DNA of 64,000 nucleotides, taken from Deltaproteobacteria bacterium. GTDB taxonomy: Bacteria; Chloroflexota; Dehalococcoidia; Dehalococcoidales; BS750m-G39. This document shows, piece after piece, positions 2,326 through 61,505 of this stretch. The translations under genes and the position numbers were made by a program. The DNA lies in the NCBI GenBank assembly GCA_030603275.1, contig JAUVYB010000005.1, positions 13,928-77,927 on the forward strand, in the 5' to 3' direction. Every line of letters starts with the position of its first letter. Position 1 is the first letter of the stretch. Below the pieces are notes generated by a model, which worked only from the letters and a program-made list of their open reading frames with translations, did no database searches and was not told the DNA's origin.

Positions 2326-2366
2326 CTTTTTAATCGCCCCTTATTTTTTAATTTTACCCCTTAAAT

Positions 2367-2672
2367 TCAGGTCAGGCCGGGGATATTGAGGCCTCCGGTT
2401 AGTTTGCCCATGCGCTCGGCGGCAAGCTCCTGGGATTTGGAGAGGGCTTCGTTTACCGCCGTCATTACCAGGTCTTCCAGCATTTCAACGTCATCGGGCT
2501 CTATCGCCTCGGGCGATATTTTTACCGATAGCACCTGCTGTTGACCGTTGACGGTGACCTTGACGGCACCTCCTCCCGAGGAGGTTTCAATGATAGCTTC
2601 GGCAAGCTCTGCCTGAGCCTTGGCCAGCTTGGCCTGGAGCTCCTGGGCCTGACGCATAAAAGACCTGTTCAC
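2367..2672 (-). CDS. ybaB: Nucleoid-associated protein YbaB/EbfC
   Basis: 101 aa. QELQAKLAKAQAEL...GGGAVKVTVNGQQQV..V.I.PE... is the typical YbaB pattern. Classic position between dnaX and recR. Confidence 0.9.
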   Translation of the reverse strand: MNRSFMRQAQELQAKLAKAQAELAEAIIETSSGGGAVKVTVNGQQQVLSVKISPEAIEPDDVEMLEDLVMTAVNEALSKSQELAAERMGKLTGGLNIPGLT

Positions 2673-4303
2673 TTTTCCTCCACGCTGATAACCTGGGCGC
2701 CGAGCCTTTTGGCGGCGTCCACCAGGTGGTTGTCTTCTGCCTCATATACGCAGCGCACCTGGCAGGGGCGCCCCAGAAAGTTGCTGATGATTGCCCTGGC
2801 GACCTGCTGATTTTCTATTGTCTCCATCTTGTCCTTGTGAATGGGGTATTTAAAGGCCAGAATCACGGTATCGTCTTCAATGGCTACCGGTTTGACCCCG
2901 GCGCTCCTGAGAATGGCGATGGCCGGGGTTCTCTTAACCTCCTCCGGCGCCTTCTCCATGACATCTTTCCAGTTGACCCTAAGACGCTCGATTTCATTGT
3001 TTATCTCGAGTGGGGTGGTGGGGGTGTCATTGGCCTTTGTTGACTTTGCCTTAGACTCGGCTGGTTTTGCCTTAGGCTCGGCCACTGGTTCGGGTGCCGG
3101 TTCCGGTTTGGCCGCTGGCTTGGTTACCGGCTCGGCCTTGGCTGTTGGGGGTTTGGGTGGATAGGCCTTTGTGACCGGCGGGGGAGGTTCTTGCTTTGCC
3201 TGGGGAGCCGGGCTTTTTATTTGCTCAGCCGGCGGCTGGACGCAGTCTACCAGTGCCAGCTCCAGGGGCAGGGTGGAGTAGTTATCAAAGCCGAGGTCAA
3301 GCTGGCCGAAGAGCTTGATTGATTTTGATATCTGGGCTAAAGAGGTTTTAGCCGCCAGCTGTTTTAGTTCGGCCTTATCTTCGGCGGTGATGTCTACGGC
3401 GTCTTCCGAGCCGGTCTTTACCAGCAGCAGCTGCCGGAGGTACTCTACTACCTCACGGTTGAACTGGCGCAGGTCGAGCCCGTCACTGTTGACACCGTTT
3501 ATGGTTGTCACTCCGCCGGCGATGTCACCGGCTACTATGTGCCTGACTAATTCCTTGGCCCGCTGGTCCCCGGTAATGCCCAGGATAGCCTGGACCTGGT
3601 TGAGGCTGATTTCGGTGCCGTAGTAGGTGGTCATCTGCTCCAGCAGGTTTTCGGCATCGCGCAGGCTGCCGGTGGCGCTCTTGGCGATGAGGTTTAGCCC
3701 CTCCGGTTCCAGCTTGATGCCTTCCGTTTCACAGATGCGGGTTAGCTTGGAGATTACGTCTGGGCGGGAGATGCGCCTGAAGTCGAAGCGCTGGCACCGG
3801 GACAGGATGGTGGCCGGGATTTTATGGGCTTCGGTGGTGGCCAGAATAAAGACGATATAGGGGGGTGGTTCCTCCAGGGTTTTGAGCAGGGCATTGGAGG
3901 CACTATTACTGAGCATATGGACTTCATCGATGATATAGACCTTATAGCGGGCCTGGTTGGGGGCGTAGTTCACCTTCTCGCGCAGGCTACGGATATCGTC
4001 AACTCCGGTGTTGGAGGCGGCATCGACCTCAATTACGTCCAGCGCCCGGCCCTCGGTTATGGCCCGGCACATATCGCAGTTATTGCACGGTTCGCCCTTG
4101 CCGTTGCTGAGGCAGTTGAGCGCCTTGGCCAGAATACGCCCGGTGCTGGTCTTGCCGGTTCCCCGGGGGCCGTAAAAGAGATAAGCATGGGATACACGCC
4201 CGCTACTGAGGGCATTGCTTAATGTTTGAGTCACCTGTTCCTGACCGACTATTTCGGCCAGGGTTTGGGGGCGCCACTTGCGATAAAAGACCTGGGATGT
4301 CAT
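2669..4303 (-). CDS. dnaX: DNA polymerase III subunit gamma/tau
   Basis: 544 aa. Walker A GPRGTGKTS, zinc module CNNCDMC, DEVHML, ILSRCQRF, then a P/A/K-rich linker. Overlaps ybaB by 4 nt. Confidence 0.95.
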   Translation of the reverse strand: MTSQVFYRKWRPQTLAEIVGQEQVTQTLSNALSSGRVSHAYLFYGPRGTGKTSTGRILAKALNCLSNGKGEPCNNCDMCRAITEGRALDVIEVDAASNTGVDDIRSLREKVNYAPNQARYKVYIIDEVHMLSNSASNALLKTLEEPPPYIVFILATTEAHKIPATILSRCQRFDFRRISRPDVISKLTRICETEGIKLEPEGLNLIAKSATGSLRDAENLLEQMTTYYGTEISLNQVQAILGITGDQRAKELVRHIVAGDIAGGVTTINGVNSDGLDLRQFNREVVEYLRQLLLVKTGSEDAVDITAEDKAELKQLAAKTSLAQISKSIKLFGQLDLGFDNYSTLPLELALVDCVQPPAEQIKSPAPQAKQEPPPPVTKAYPPKPPTAKAEPVTKPAAKPEPAPEPVAEPKAKPAESKAKSTKANDTPTTPLEINNEIERLRVNWKDVMEKAPEEVKRTPAIAILRSAGVKPVAIEDDTVILAFKYPIHKDKMETIENQQVARAIISNFLGRPCQVRCVYEAEDNHLVDAAKRLGAQVISVEEK

Positions 4304-21929: not shown

Positions 21930-22001
21930 GCCAGCGTAGCTCAGGGGTAGAGCAGCGGTTTCGTAAACCGCCGGTCGTCAGTTCGAATCTGACCGCTGGC
22001 T
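21930..22001 (+). tRNA. tRNA-Thr (anticodon CGT)
   Basis: Hand-folded cloverleaf: acceptor GCCAGCG/CGCTGGC, D arm GCTC/GAGC, anticodon stem GCGGT/ACCGC with loop TTCGTAA, T arm GTCAG-TTCGAAT-CTGAC. No encoded CCA. Confidence 0.93.
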
Positions 22002-22097: not shown

Positions 22098-22169
22098 GCC
22101 AGCGTAGCTCAGGGGTAGAGCAGCGGTTTTGTAAACCGCCGGTCGTCAGTTCGAATCTGACCGCTGGCT
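22098..22169 (+). tRNA. tRNA-Thr (anticodon TGT)
   Basis: Identical to the previous tRNA except for one base, C34 to T34 (anticodon loop TTTGTAA). Confidence 0.93.
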
Positions 22170-58073: not shown

Positions 58074-58376
58074 AAAAAGAAGCTGCTCTCCTCGCTCTAC
58101 GGGGCAAGAGCGATCTTTATCAGACTCTTCGTTGCCGCGAGCCTTTCAAACCCTTTCTCCACAATACTTTATCTTGATACCTCGCCGGTGGCGGCCTCTG
58201 GTTTTGGCCGTTCCTGTAACCTGATGGATCTTACTCCTTCACACACTGCGACTTTCATGGTACCCTACTATAATATGTTGTTGCTTTATCAAATATTTCA
58301 TAAGTTCCGGGTGGTGCAGATATATATTCGGCGGCAATAGTTTTGCTCAACAACCAAGAGGTCGGACACAGACCTC

Positions 58377-58722
58377 CTAGCTTCGTGGTGGGTGGTACAG
58401 TACAATAGGCAGAACTTTTAAGCTCGCCTTCACCCTGACCGTATAGTAGTATAACCTACAAACCTGTCGGAGGTAAAGTTGCCGAAGAAGTCGGTCAGGC
58501 TGCTCCTTTTCCGTCTCCTGCTGTCTGGCGCGGTCTTTAGCCGCTTCCTCAAGCTGGTCATAGAGGGAAAGACCCAGGATATCGCCCAGCACCTCCTTGT
58601 GCCTGGTGGGGGGGGGGGTGGTTGGTGCACTCGTCGGCGTGTCCCTGCCTGAGGAAGGCGCTGTTAATGAAGGTGGCGTAGTCCATGTGGAGGGTATTGA
58701 TAATCTTCTGCTGGGTCCGGGT
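58377..58722 (-). pseudogene. Relic of an SbcC/Rad50-like ATPase gene (internal ~75-aa fragment, frameshifted at a homopolymer)
   Basis: Minus-strand translation gives TRTQQKIINTLHMDYATFINSAFLRQGHADE. After a 1-nt frame change inside the 11-nt G run (58608-58618) it continues RHKEVLGDILGLSLYDQLEEAAKDRARQQ. A stop lies 2 codons upstream of the first block. No P-loop N-terminus or C-terminal domain is present. Confidence 0.5.
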
Positions 58723-58733
58723 TATTTATCTAT

Positions 58734-58762
58734 TTGTAAAGCTGGTCGCTTTGGTGTATAAT
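58734..58762 (+). promoter_or_regulatory. Sigma-70-like promoter of the zinc-ribbon / RNA-binding gene set
   Basis: TTGTAA, 17 nt (ending in TG-G-TG), TATAAT (58757-58762). Confidence 0.5.
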
Positions 58763-58828
58763 ATATTTAATAGTTTAGGTTTAGGTTATTACTAGCTTTT
58801 TAGAGTCCGCTCATATTTGTATTAAGTA

Positions 58829-58880
58829 TTGGATGACCCGAACTCCAACTAAAATTCCGGAGAGGGGAGGTCATCCAATG
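58829..58880 (+). promoter_or_regulatory. 5'-leader hairpin sequestering the Shine-Dalgarno sequence and start codon of zinc-ribbon gene 1
   Basis: TTGGATGACC (58829-58838) pairs perfectly with GGTCATCCAA (58869-58878). The 3' arm contains the last 2 nt of GGAGG and the A of the ATG at 58878. Confidence 0.55.
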
Positions 58881-59123
58881 TGCTTTCAGGACAAGTCGCT
58901 CCAATGTTCCGATTGTGGGGCCACATTTACTTTCAGCGCTGAGGAACAAGAGTTTTTCCAGTCTAAAGGCTTTACTAATGAGCCAAAGCGCTGTCCCTCG
59001 TGCCATACAGCAAGGAAGACAAAGCGTTACGGAGATGGTGACTACAGCTACAGATCCAGATCCTGGCAGCAGATGTTCCGTTTAAATTTCTATCAAGTGT
59101 TGGATGACCCCAACTCTAACTAA
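58878..59123 (+). CDS. Small zinc-ribbon protein (CxxC...CxxC, zf-trcl-like), paralog 1 with C-terminal extension
   Basis: Start at MCFQDKSLQCSDCG (GGAGG lies 7 nt upstream). CSDC...CPSC. 81 aa. Its stop lies inside the leader of paralog 2. Confidence 0.7.
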   Translation: MCFQDKSLQCSDCGATFTFSAEEQEFFQSKGFTNEPKRCPSCHTARKTKRYGDGDYSYRSRSWQQMFRLNFYQVLDDPNSN

Positions 59124-59147
59124 TAGAAGAGAGGAGGTCATCCAATG
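59100..59147 (+). promoter_or_regulatory. Second copy of the SD/AUG-sequestering hairpin (leader of zinc-ribbon gene 2)
   Basis: TTGGATGACC (59100-59109) pairs with GGTCATCCAA (59136-59145). ATG at 59145. Confidence 0.55.
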
Positions 59148-59333
59148 AGCTTTCAGGACAAAGAGATCCAATGTTCCGATTGTGGGACTACATTCACTTT
59201 CAGCGCTGGGGAACAAGAGTTCTTCCAGTCTAAAGGCTTTACCAATGAGCCTAAGCGCTGTCCCTCATGCCGTCGAGCCAACAAAGCGCAGCGTTCCGAT
59301 AGCGGAAACTATAGCCAAAGTTCCAAGTGGTGA
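59145..59333 (+). CDS. Small zinc-ribbon protein (zf-trcl-like), paralog 2
   Basis: 62 aa: MSFQDKEIQCSDCGTTFTFSAGEQEFFQSKGFTNEPKRCPSCRRANK. Confidence 0.72.
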   Translation: MSFQDKEIQCSDCGTTFTFSAGEQEFFQSKGFTNEPKRCPSCRRANKAQRSDSGNYSQSSKW

Positions 59334-59459
59334 ATGCTTTGTGCCTTCTACGTGAGCAGCTAATGCTGGTTTGCTTTTGAAGACATGCACAGGTCAGGAG
59401 TACCTGGCCTGTGTGCCACTAGAACAAGGATTACACAATGTAACAAGGAGGGTTCTAAT

Positions 59460-59813
59460 ATGAGAATCTATGTAGGTAACTTATCCTATGACGTGACTGA
59501 AGAGGAGTTAAGGGAAGATTTCGCCTCTTTTGGAAAGGTAGAGTCTATAGCTATTCCAACCGACAAATATAGCGGTAGAGCCAGAGGATTTGCCTTTGTC
59601 GAGATGCCTTCGGTGTCCGAGGGTCAGGCGGCAATCGCAGCTCTCAATGGCAAGACGGTAAAAGACCGGACTCTCACCGTGAATGCCGCACGCCCCCGTT
59701 CTGACAGCGGAGGCGGTGGATCCTATGGCGACAGAAGAGGTGGTGGGGGTGGTGGATTTGGTGGCGGTGGTAGAGGTGGTAGATCCGGGGGAGGAAGACA
59801 GCAAAGATATTAA
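59460..59813 (+). CDS. RRM-domain RNA-binding protein with glycine/arginine-rich tail
   Basis: Start at MRIYVGNLSY (RNP2; AAGGAGGG upstream). RNP1 RGFAFVEM. C-terminal GGGGSYGDRRGGGGGGFGGGGRGGRSGGGR. Confidence 0.87.
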   Translation: MRIYVGNLSYDVTEEELREDFASFGKVESIAIPTDKYSGRARGFAFVEMPSVSEGQAAIAALNGKTVKDRTLTVNAARPRSDSGGGGSYGDRRGGGGGGFGGGGRGGRSGGGRQQRY

Positions 59814-59933
59814 GTTATCTGGTGGCTGTCTAAGATTAAAGGTCGTGCTGGTATTTACATGAATCCAGAAACTGTTGCTGACACACTCGTGACAGATCGG
59901 CGTAGGGAAACCCGTTTCATAAAAGGGGGTAAC

Positions 59934-60269
59934 ATGAATATATATGTGGGTAACTTACCGCTTGAGGTGACTGAGGATGAACTGCGACAAGAATTCACGG
60001 CTTTCGGAGAAGTGATATCTGCAATCATTATGAATGATAAGTATATTGGTAGCGGCCAACAGCGCGGATATGGCTTTGTTCAAATGCCATCATCGTCTGA
60101 AGGTAACGCCGCAATTACTGCTCTCAATGACAAAACACTGGGGCATATGACTATTAGTGTTGTTGAGGCCCTCCCTCTTTCTGACAAAAAAGGCAATGGC
60201 TATTTTGTTGCCAGGAAACGTGGCTGGTCCAGTAGCAGAGTAAGACAAAGAAGATACAAAATCAGTTGA
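59934..60269 (+). CDS. RRM-domain RNA-binding protein with basic tail
   Basis: Start at MNIYVGNLPL (RNP2). RNP1 RGYGFVQM. C-terminal KRGWSSSRVRQRRYK. Confidence 0.85.
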   Translation: MNIYVGNLPLEVTEDELRQEFTAFGEVISAIIMNDKYIGSGQQRGYGFVQMPSSSEGNAAITALNDKTLGHMTISVVEALPLSDKKGNGYFVARKRGWSSSRVRQRRYKIS

Positions 60270-60323
60270 GTTGCCTGCCGTTTTTTAGGCGCAGGTGACT
60301 CTAAATTTTAACAAGGAGTTTTA

Positions 60324-61505
60324 ATGAGTTTCGAAACCTTCAATTTTGATCCGAGCATCATGGCCGGTGTACGTGCGCTCGGTTACATCACACCCACACC
60401 AATCCAGGATAAATCCATCCCGCCAATTATGCAGGGGCGTGATATCATTGGCATAGCCCAGACCGGAACCGGCAAGACTGCCGCTTTTGTGCTGCCGATT
60501 CTGCAGCGTCTACTGCCGGGCCCACGGGGCCGTGTCCGGGCTTTAATAGTATCGCCCACGCGTGAACTGGCCGAGCAAATAGGCGAGGCCATAAATGATT
60601 TGGGGGAACAAACCGGATTGCAGGGTCTAGCCATCTATGGTGGAGTGAGTATGGAGCAGCAAGTCCGGAAACTACGCAGCGGGGTTGACATAGTTGTTGG
60701 TTGTCCCGGCCGGCTGCTCGATCACCTTTGGAAGGGTACAGTTGATTTATCCCATCTGGAGGTTCTCGTAATCGATGAGGCGGACCGGATGTTTGATATG
60801 GGCTTTCTACCCAGCGTCAGGGGTATTCTGGAGTGTATATTAAACCGGCGGCAGACACTCCTTTTTTCGGCTACCATGCCCGGTGATATCCGGCGTCTGG
60901 TGCAAGAAATCCTGCACGACCCGGTCACAGTACAAATTGGCCGCTCGGCACCGGCAACCACCGTGTCACACTCACTGTATCCGGTAAAGCAGCACCTCAA
61001 GACGGCTCTGCTGAAGGAGCTATTAAACAAAACCAGAACAGAGTCGGTCCTTATCTTTACGCGTACCAAGCACCGCGCCGACCGCGTAGCGCAACAATTG
61101 ATAAGGGCAGGATATCGGGCGACCGCACTGCAGGGTAATATGCCTCAGTACCAGCGTAACGCCGCGCTTGCTGGCTTCCGCGATGGCTCATATAAGATCC
61201 TGGTGGCGACTGATATTGCCGCCCGAGGCATCGATGTTTTGGAAATTTCACACGTCGTCAACTACGATATGCCCGACAGTACGGACGCCTACACTCATCG
61301 CATCGGCCGTACCGGACGAGTTGGCAAAGCCGGTGATGCATTCACTTTAGTGACGGGTGAAGACACGGCCATGGTGCGCTCTCTTGAGCGCCTTCTTGAC
61401 CGACCGTTGGAGCACCGTACGCTAAAAAGCTTTGATTACACAAAGTCTGCACCAGCCAGAGAATACATCCGCACTACGCGTCAATTAGGACGACGTGCAG
61501 TATGA
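60324..61505 (+). CDS. DEAD-box ATP-dependent RNA helicase (RhlE/CshA-like)
   Basis: 393 aa. Q motif TPIQ, AQTGTGKT, PTRELA, DEAD, SAT, HRIGRTGR. Confidence 0.93.
   Translation: MSFETFNFDPSIMAGVRALGYITPTPIQDKSIPPIMQGRDIIGIAQTGTGKTAAFVLPILQRLLPGPRGRVRALIVSPTRELAEQIGEAINDLGEQTGLQGLAIYGGVSMEQQVRKLRSGVDIVVGCPGRLLDHLWKGTVDLSHLEVLVIDEADRMFDMGFLPSVRGILECILNRRQTLLFSATMPGDIRRLVQEILHDPVTVQIGRSAPATTVSHSLYPVKQHLKTALLKELLNKTRTESVLIFTRTKHRADRVAQQLIRAGYRATALQGNMPQYQRNAALAGFRDGSYKILVATDIAARGIDVLEISHVVNYDMPDSTDAYTHRIGRTGRVGKAGDAFTLVTGEDTAMVRSLERLLDRPLEHRTLKSFDYTKSAPAREYIRTTRQLGRRAV

Follow-up and report, generated by a model that had tools for sequence, protein, structure and literature searches.

The closest known system to the RNA element discussed here is that of the csp thermoswitches, which are found in the leaders of Staphylococcus aureus cspB and cspC, Escherichia coli cspA and Listeria monocytogenes cspA. 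It was shown experimentally that csp 5'-untranslated regions (5'UTRs) can take up an open fold, in which a long imperfect 5' hairpin hides the anti-ribosome-binding site (anti-RBS), or a locked fold, with the anti-RBS paired to the ribosome-binding site (RBS) (PMC8034633). In the cspB and cspC leaders of S. aureus these are the O and L conformations, and a cold-shock protein (CSP) favours the locked fold (PMC8034633). The element presented below is located in a 64-kb stretch of Dehalococcoidia DNA (the window, to which all coordinates refer; all results are computational). It consists of the leader, predicted to be ~108 nt long, of a gene for a zinc-ribbon protein of the zf_Tbcl family (PF13451), here called gene 1, and of a related copy in front of the adjacent zinc-ribbon gene, gene 2. 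Judged from its sequence, the leader of gene 1 is a sequestor/anti-sequestor switch, since the 5' arm and the loop of the hairpin that covers the translation start also form the 3' strand of a covarying long-range helix. It is fairly likely that this leader acts as a bistable translational switch with an ON and an OFF state, to which the expression of gene 2 is coupled.

The zf_Tbcl leader and the csp leaders (~110-160 nt) are of similar length and have their own promoter. Both have two mutually exclusive folds, both occur as paralogous leaders on paralogous genes, and both are found among neighbours of the cold-shock type. In contrast to the csp systems, the regulated gene encodes a zf_Tbcl zinc ribbon and not a cold-shock-domain protein, the host belongs to the class Dehalococcoidia of the phylum Chloroflexota, the leader resembles the cspA family of Rfam neither in sequence nor by covariance model, and a second copy without anti-sequestor is embedded in the upstream open reading frame (ORF). 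A further point of difference is the small equilibrium shift with temperature that is predicted for the zf_Tbcl leader. Two alternative structures, one of which exposes the RBS, are also known from the lambda cIII mRNA and from translational riboswitch platforms. As in these, a three-strand alternative pairing would decide on access to the RBS, but the zf_Tbcl leader shows no sign of a ligand domain or of dependence on RNase III, and its spacer is unconserved.

The zf_Tbcl leader is a widespread structured RNA family outside Rfam, in which a csp-like two-state leader is combined with a predicted masked-RBS coupling of the classical kind. More than 170 instances were found in the Dehalococcoidia and further Chloroflexota, bacteria for which there is hardly any genetics, and covariation for two competing folds is a rarer type of evidence than covariation for a single structure.

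The hairpin over the translation start

The ATG of gene 1 is at 58878-58880 and its Shine-Dalgarno (SD) sequence, GGAGG, at 58866-58870 (features are on the plus strand unless indicated otherwise). Both are sequestered in the OFF fold, in which a 10-nt 5' arm, TTGGATGACC (58829-58838; as UUGGAUGACC), pairs perfectly with a 3' arm, GGTCATCCAA (58869-58878; as GGUCAUCCAA). The 5' arm is the anti-SD or anti-RBS strand and is common to two mutually exclusive folds. The intervening loop of 30 nt (58839-58868) has a conserved 5' part, CGAACUCCAACUA (58839-58851), which is the 3' strand of the ON helix, and a 3' part that holds a run rich in purines and the beginning of the SD. Hairpin 2 (59100-59147) has the same arms, TTGGATGACC at 59100-59109 and GGTCATCCAA at 59136-59145, around a loop of 26 nt (59110-59135), with an SD GGAGG at 59133-59137 and the ATG of gene 2 at 59145-59147. 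In both copies the last two G residues of the SD open the 3' arm and the A of the ATG closes it, and the motif C(G/C)AACTC(C/T)AACTAA is common to both loops. These arms, the loop lengths and the burial of the SD GG and the ATG A had been given in a preliminary description of the locus, and were confirmed by reading of the sequence and by a repeat search in which both inverted repeats were recovered.

Nearest-neighbour estimates, which were used for all folding energies, amounted to -20.3 kcal/mol for hairpin 1 (z -3.15; 1 of 200 shuffles as good) and -20.8 kcal/mol for hairpin 2 (z -5.31; none of 200 shuffles as good). For hairpin 2 an outer extension is predicted, of 59061-59071 with 59148-59158, which would strengthen it further. 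The repeat unit as a whole is ~270 nt long, with 82-83 % identity between the copies.

A genome scan with the 62-aa protein of gene 2 resulted in 80 loci, almost all from metagenome-assembled genomes of Dehalococcoidia and the closest of them from Dehalococcoidales bins, which makes this order the most likely source of the window. The same leader, gtaTTGGATGACC..ACTCTAAC(T/C)AA..AGAGAGGAGGTCATCCAATG, precedes every homolog in this set. Two alignments were made, one of 85 short leaders for the OFF hairpin and one of 84 full leaders, in which 190 nt of upstream sequence were aligned; slid partner strands served as controls for the pair counts. RNAalifold returned exactly the ten OFF pairs from the short as well as from the full leaders. 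In the 85 short leaders, 96.9 % of the cells of the OFF hairpin are paired versus 34-55 % for the slid controls, and four pairs have undergone double-sided changes. In one clade UUGG...CCAA-ATG has been replaced by ACGG...CCGU-UG, so that the first base of the start codon has changed from A to U together with its partner (UA to AU, ATG to TTG). What other variation there is in the OFF arms, A>G on the 5' side or C>U on the 3' side, yields a G:U pair, and does so on the plus strand alone. Because of these compensatory and G:U-only changes the hairpin is taken to act as plus-strand RNA; by the criterion of sequence comparison, it is a real and conserved RNA structure that covers the SD in part, together with the initial base of the start codon. 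The pairing was thus found before zf_Tbcl genes of Dehalococcoidia and other Chloroflexota, in the 80 genome loci and in 87 metagenome matches, with compensatory changes. The remark in the preliminary description that covariation support was lacking is thereby superseded, as the orthologous leaders supply it.

The same observations bear on the idea that the repeat is a DNA palindrome used as an operator by a transcription factor. A perfect 10-nt inverted repeat near a promoter would suit such a site, but the spacing of the arms varies from ~24 to 31 nt and the second copy lies inside a coding region. Moreover, it is the plus strand alone on which the single-sided changes retain a G:U pair; at a symmetrical DNA site they would amount to A.C mismatches. 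A covariance model built from the leader alignment reached 17 bits on the reverse strand versus 71-76 bits on the forward strand. The probability of an operator is next to negligible.

The preliminary description had proposed a switch consisting of the SD hairpin alone, which would either melt as a thermometer or be opened directly by a helicase. The occlusion of SD and AUG speaks in favour of this proposal, as does the synteny with helicase and RRM genes. In zipper thermometers the stems are weak and mismatched. The zf_Tbcl hairpin shares with the ROSE and fourU elements the pairing of SD and AUG in a 5'UTR hairpin; unlike theirs, its stem is perfect and far too stable, a conserved helix competes with it, and it has no Rfam match. 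With ten perfect pairs and ~-20 kcal/mol, the 3' arm has an unpaired probability of at most 0.14 up to 80 °C in in-silico folding. As the predicted hairpin is still folded at that temperature, these calculations make a simple melting thermometer unlikely, and the temperature-melting part of the proposal has to be abandoned. A melting hairpin would also activate the genes upon heating, the opposite of what a cold-shock neighbourhood calls for, and a lone hairpin leaves the conserved, covarying 5' block and loop unexplained. What stands of the single-hairpin switch is the conserved occlusion of SD and AUG; what does not is the view of the loop as a mere loop, because it takes part in a competing, covarying helix with the 5' end. 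As an explanation of the whole element the lone hairpin, whether melted or opened by a helicase, is quite improbable.

Further pairings and signals in and around the hairpin were considered and rejected. An inner helix, CUCU:AGAG, is paired in 81.8 % of cells with zero double changes and is unsupported. A pseudoknot between AACUC of the loop and GAGUU of codons 2-3 was dropped upon inspection of the alignment, as the variants ATGGTT, ATGGCT and ATGTGC occur without covariation. Mimicry of the 16S 3' tail, UUGGAUCACC, by the 5' arm UUGGAUGACC was also discarded: the likeness is a mere consequence of the extended SD pairing, and the window is without 16S sequence. An AUG is present inside the 5' arm (GGAUGACC, 58833-58835, plus strand), which in copy 1 is in frame with gene 1 and gives rise to a 96-aa ORF from 58833. 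It is probably not used, since it lacks an SD and since its counterpart in copy 2 is not in frame.

The competing helix and the two predicted states of the leader

A sigma-70-type promoter is located at 58734-58762, with TTGTAA (58734-58739) and TATAAT (58757-58762) separated by a 17-nt spacer. It is the only plus-strand promoter-like site in 58300-60400, and TTGCAAA-N17-(TG)nTATAAT is found at the same distance in nearly all of the 84 orthologous leaders. The promoter ends ~115 nt before the ATG, which gives the predicted leader of ~108 nt, and from its sequence transcription is expected to start at ~58768-58771. Directly after the promoter the 84 leaders carry a conserved block, rGUGGUUUyAGUUUAGGUUAUyAC, which, given the conserved promoter position, would form the very 5' end of the transcript.

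In the window this 5' block (the anti-sequestor, or block A; 58771-58790) pairs in the ON fold with 58832-58851, by way of UAGUU (58771-75/58847-51), GGUUU (58778-82/58840-44) and GGUUAUU (58784-90/58832-38). The strand common to the ON and OFF folds is 58832-58838. The conservation of the loop motif shared by both copies, CNAACTCYAACTAA, is explained by its base-pairing with the 5' end of the transcript.

The 17 pairs of the ON helix hold in 90.9 % of cells in the 84 full leaders versus 21-53 % in the slid controls, and seven of them have double-sided changes. Cells with double changes number 45 versus 12.7 +/- 9.7 in shuffled alignments, a value reached by none of 500 shuffles. One pair is GC in 37 leaders, AU in 33 and GU in 7, with no A.C at all. 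Parsimony on the gene tree requires at least 13-18 changes in each column of this GC/AU pair, so that the covariation in the ON helix does not stem from a single event. RNAalifold recovered the core of the helix when it was run on truncated leaders. In an independent set of 83 metagenome leaders, which had been picked solely by the sequence of the OFF helix, the ON helix was 85 % paired (23-51 % for slid controls) and the same pair was AU in 31 and GC in 31. When the leaders were cut just before the SD, the ON helix had a mean pair probability of 0.88, with values above 0.5 in 79 of the 84; in the full-length leaders the SD hairpin wins in 64 of the 84. Both structures are thus established in silico, as are their conservation and their covariation. 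A short helix beside the ON core, (G/A)CUU:AAGU, holds in the main clade, contains A.C mismatches elsewhere and is absent in the ACGG clade.

The layout of three competing strands is typical of expression platforms, and a run of four U residues is present at codons 2-3; these features would suit a small-molecule riboswitch, or an attenuator with the B:C hairpin as terminator and A:B as antiterminator. However, the spacer enclosed by the ON strands (58791-58828) varies in sequence and length and contains clade-specific small local hairpins, without a conserved unpaired core. As the spacer is unconserved, a ligand-binding pocket is not expected. The conserved positions of the leader belong to the two competing helices, the SD and the promoter, and do not include a riboswitch-like core. 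Rfam scans, of the window at the gathering threshold and of 58300-60400 at E <= 10, gave no family at the element, 58700-59200 being empty at both settings. Against an attenuator it can be said that the U run follows the stem at a distance of 6 nt and is only 4 nt long, that no terminator-like site was called in 58300-60400, and that SD and start codon are contained in the 3' arm. Either type of element is very improbable here.

The ON helix begins a few nt from the predicted transcription start. This position would agree with a leader that is mainly an mRNA-stability element, in which the long-range helix shields the 5' end from 5'-end-dependent RNases while the SD hairpin is incidental or tunes basal translation. 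The mutual exclusion of the helix and an equally conserved SD/AUG hairpin on one shared strand is hard to explain without translational control, however, and hairpin 2 retains the SD-sequestering half without any 5' end to protect. A role chiefly in mRNA stability is distinctly unlikely.

The translational switch is envisaged to operate as follows. In the ON fold 58771-58790, the initial ~20 nt of the transcript, would pair with 58832-58851 and leave SD and AUG single-stranded. This fold would be the first to form, since both its strands are transcribed before the SD. In the OFF fold 58829-58838 would pair with 58869-58878, and the resulting hairpin of ~-20 kcal/mol would bar the 30S subunit from SD and AUG. 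As the OFF fold is slightly more stable, the mRNA would relax from ON to OFF, and the rate of this relaxation, or whether it occurs at all, would set the protein output. The window leader has predicted energies at 37 °C of -23.2 kcal/mol in the ON and -26.4 kcal/mol in the OFF fold, and in constrained folding OFF is the more stable by ~4 kcal/mol whatever the temperature. To get from ON to OFF by a direct path, the leader would have to overcome ~17 kcal/mol at 37 °C and ~26 kcal/mol at 10 °C (findpath values). Control would thus be kinetic, with a slower relaxation in the cold, and RNA chaperones or a helicase could speed up equilibration. By analogy with the csp thermoswitches, the trigger is probably low temperature. 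A dependence of the switch on the helicase or the RRM proteins is pure conjecture.

The tandem copy and the probable coupling of the two genes

Gene 1 (58878-59123) encodes a zf_Tbcl zinc ribbon of 81 aa and gene 2 (59145-59333) one of 62 aa. Their PF13451 scores of 71.5 and 78 bits, respectively, both exceed the cut-off of 24 bits, and the proteins contain two CxxC pairs of which the Cys residues are invariant in the alignments. Gene 2 is the ortholog of the single-copy genes present in most other loci. Its leader, copy 2, does not have the 5' block, the upstream sequence being the coding sequence of gene 1. The last 19 codons of gene 1 are at the same time the leader of gene 2. The reading frame, with the ending ...Y Q V L D D P N S N, crosses the 5' arm of hairpin 2, and the TAA stop codon of gene 1 (59121-59123) is located inside loop 2, 21 nt before the ATG of gene 2. 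The two hairpin copies are functionally non-equivalent, since copy 2 is without an anti-sequestor, its 5' arm is coding, and its loop harbours the stop codon of gene 1.

The tandem had been regarded, by implication, as the product of a recent duplication private to this genome. This view cannot be maintained, as the arrangement with an 81-aa gene 1 is conserved: in ~35 protein clusters (67-90 % identity) the length is 81 aa without exception and the tail reads ...SWQQMFRLNxYQVL(G/D)DPNSN. The tail variant with L-G-D corresponds to the G:U variant of the arm, UUGGGUGACC. The same tandem is present in four sampled contigs (L081-L084), with a distance from the stop codon to the second ATG of 21-26 nt; in L081, where the second gene is missing from the gene calls, its ORF can be read 25 nt beyond the stop codon. 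The reading frame through the second leader and the conserved 81-aa form are, like the two structures, established in silico.

Translational coupling by way of a masked RBS is known from the coat and replicase genes of MS2 and from many ribosomal-protein and trp/gal operon junctions. The locus in the window has the layout required for it, in that the upstream ORF crosses one strand of the masking hairpin and ends close by. As in MS2-type coupling, the downstream RBS and start codon lie in a stable hairpin of which one strand is part of the upstream ORF, with the stop codon ~21 nt before the ATG. Unlike in MS2-type coupling, the hairpin is a recycled copy of a regulatory leader, and the 19 C-terminal residues of gene 1 are derived from that former leader. 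To judge from this arrangement, gene 2 should be translationally coupled to gene 1, because a ribosome that finishes gene 1 has melted hairpin 2 and ends beside the SD of gene 2. Ribosomes on gene 1 would in this way unmask the start site of gene 2, and a single switch in leader 1 would govern both genes. A regulatory hairpin would then be re-usable as a device for translational coupling after duplication.

Distribution of the leader and its possible signal

In the 64-kb window the covariance model matched the two copies only, with 76 and 71 bits, and in 405 kb of related loci its matches were all directly upstream of zf_Tbcl genes. A metagenome scan with the exact arms gave 123 matches, of which 87 are before zf_Tbcl genes, mostly of a two-domain form of ~100 aa. 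The others comprise ~27 GC-rich chance matches, ~8 motif-like ones, with the AT-rich loop but without a legible zf_Tbcl ORF, at contig ends or with a lost start codon, and a single one before another ORF. The latter (L173, ~26-73 of a metagenome contig, minus strand) is a motif-like leader with an AT-rich loop, CAAGCTCCAGCTAAC, followed by an unrelated ORF (MVKVSSALYRELNN...). In three cases (L096, L197 and L203) the leader is present and the start codon is mutated.

Some genomes contain non-adjacent pairs of leader and gene, which points to repeated duplication of the family together with its leader. In L027 two such units, at 2327-2386 (minus strand) and 2947-3006 (plus strand), are divergent and ~0.6 kb apart, and in L018 and L043 two non-tandem units are separated by 1.4-2.4 kb. 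In other Chloroflexota the same leader is found before a 101-aa two-domain form (zf_Tbcl plus zf_Tbcl_2). This form is followed by the gene for ribosomal protein S21 and two RRM genes in L087 (1449-2838), and by one RRM gene in L085 and L086 (1501-2300). The linkage of S21 and RRM genes is reminiscent of the cold-regulated rbp-rpsU operons of cyanobacteria.

Several points weigh against the two-state, cold-triggered switch as outlined above. The predicted thermodynamic shift with temperature is modest, P(ON) being 0.08 at 55 °C and 0.30 at 0 °C, and a purely thermodynamic temperature switch was rejected for this mild shift; the barriers on which the kinetic version draws are heuristic upper bounds. 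The predicted ground state is ON and not OFF in about 15-19 of the 84 leaders. The transcription start is placed from the promoter consensus only, and a single clade, with ACGG...CCGT and a TTG start, contributes much of the double-sided variation in the OFF hairpin. With respect to coupling, the conservation of the 81-aa length could in part be a by-product of conservation of leader 2 at the RNA level. Finally, in the searches with the covariance model the leader turned up in front of zf_Tbcl genes alone, the RRM and helicase genes next to them being without it. Gene-specific feedback would account for this pattern no less well than a general temperature sensor.

Such feedback would consist of binding of the leader by the zinc-ribbon or an RRM protein, which would select or stabilise one fold, most simply OFF, and so bring about autoregulation; temperature would not be the primary signal. 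The strict limitation of the leader to zf_Tbcl genes, to the exclusion of the co-located RRM and helicase genes, favours this explanation. Restriction to the own gene is typical of autoregulated leaders. With the two folds no more than ~4 kcal/mol apart, even a modest energy of binding could tip the balance, and in S. aureus the locked fold of the cspB and cspC leaders is favoured by a CSP (PMC8034633). On the other hand, nearly all conserved nucleotides of the leader are explained by the two helices, which leaves little conserved single strand for binding, and the zf_Tbcl proteins gave no sign of RNA binding: a sequence search of the PDB with the zinc-ribbon protein returned generic C2H2 zinc fingers only, and a Foldseek comparison of an AF2 model (pLDDT 76) with the PDB had no match below E = 0.3. 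Protein feedback is the main rival of the temperature-dependent switch and is on the whole rather unlikely.

A more speculative and still less probable variant of the two-state switch is that the leader is a sensor of RNA-folding capacity. The ON fold would then be a kinetic trap, the decay of which is catalysed by the zinc-ribbon protein, the RRM proteins and the helicase, so that the output of the genes would both signal and make good a lack of RNA-chaperone activity; zf_Tbcl would be the Chloroflexota counterpart of the CspA-type chaperones.

The zf_Tbcl family is very large and uncharacterised, with 5,331 representative clusters at E <= 0.001, among which are proteins with two to four tandem domains. 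An NCBIfam scan gave nothing for the zinc ribbons, and a search of the literature for the domain family, its Cys motif and cold shock in Dehalococcoidia brought up nothing on the RNA or the protein family. The leader connects this family with post-transcriptional control as well as with RRM, DEAD-box and S21 genes, which suggests a role of the zf_Tbcl proteins in cold shock or RNA metabolism.

In the window gene 2 is followed by two RRM genes (both RRM_1; 59460-59813 and 59934-60269), a gene for a DEAD-box RNA helicase (60324-61505) and one for a CxxCxxCC protein. The RRM/DEAD-box neighbourhood, to which the preliminary description had already drawn attention, recurs elsewhere, with RRM genes downstream in 36 of the 80 loci and a DEAD-box helicase gene nearby in 12 of the 80. 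With its RRM, DEAD-box and S21 genes the neighbourhood is of cold-shock character and fits the role of the leader as a switch.

A few other features of the region and of the window are worth recording. A G-rich stretch with a run of ~11 G residues is present at ~58605-58625, ~110 nt upstream of the promoter, and this region may be a decayed gene or a homopolymer prone to sequencing errors. Fragmented ORFs on the minus strand (58377-58686) were looked at as an SbcC-like remnant, but this was a guess without a Pfam match and was dropped. A sub-threshold Rfam match to DUF1874 at 58536-58629 was judged to be due to chance, and two tRNA genes (21930-22001 and 22098-22169, plus strand) are the sole Rfam matches in the window at the gathering threshold. 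Between gene 2 and the first RRM gene a 12-bp hairpin, GCACAGGUCAGG-AGUA-CCUGGCCUGUGC (59387-59414, plus strand), is predicted with -21.6 kcal/mol (z -3.7). It is not followed by a U tract and might serve in mRNA processing or stability, or else belong to the RRM gene's own leader. An identical 10-mer, TAACAAGGAG, occurs at 59441-59450 and 60309-60318 (plus strand), just before the starts of the first RRM gene and of the helicase gene, and is a shared RBS context unlike that of the zinc-ribbon leaders.

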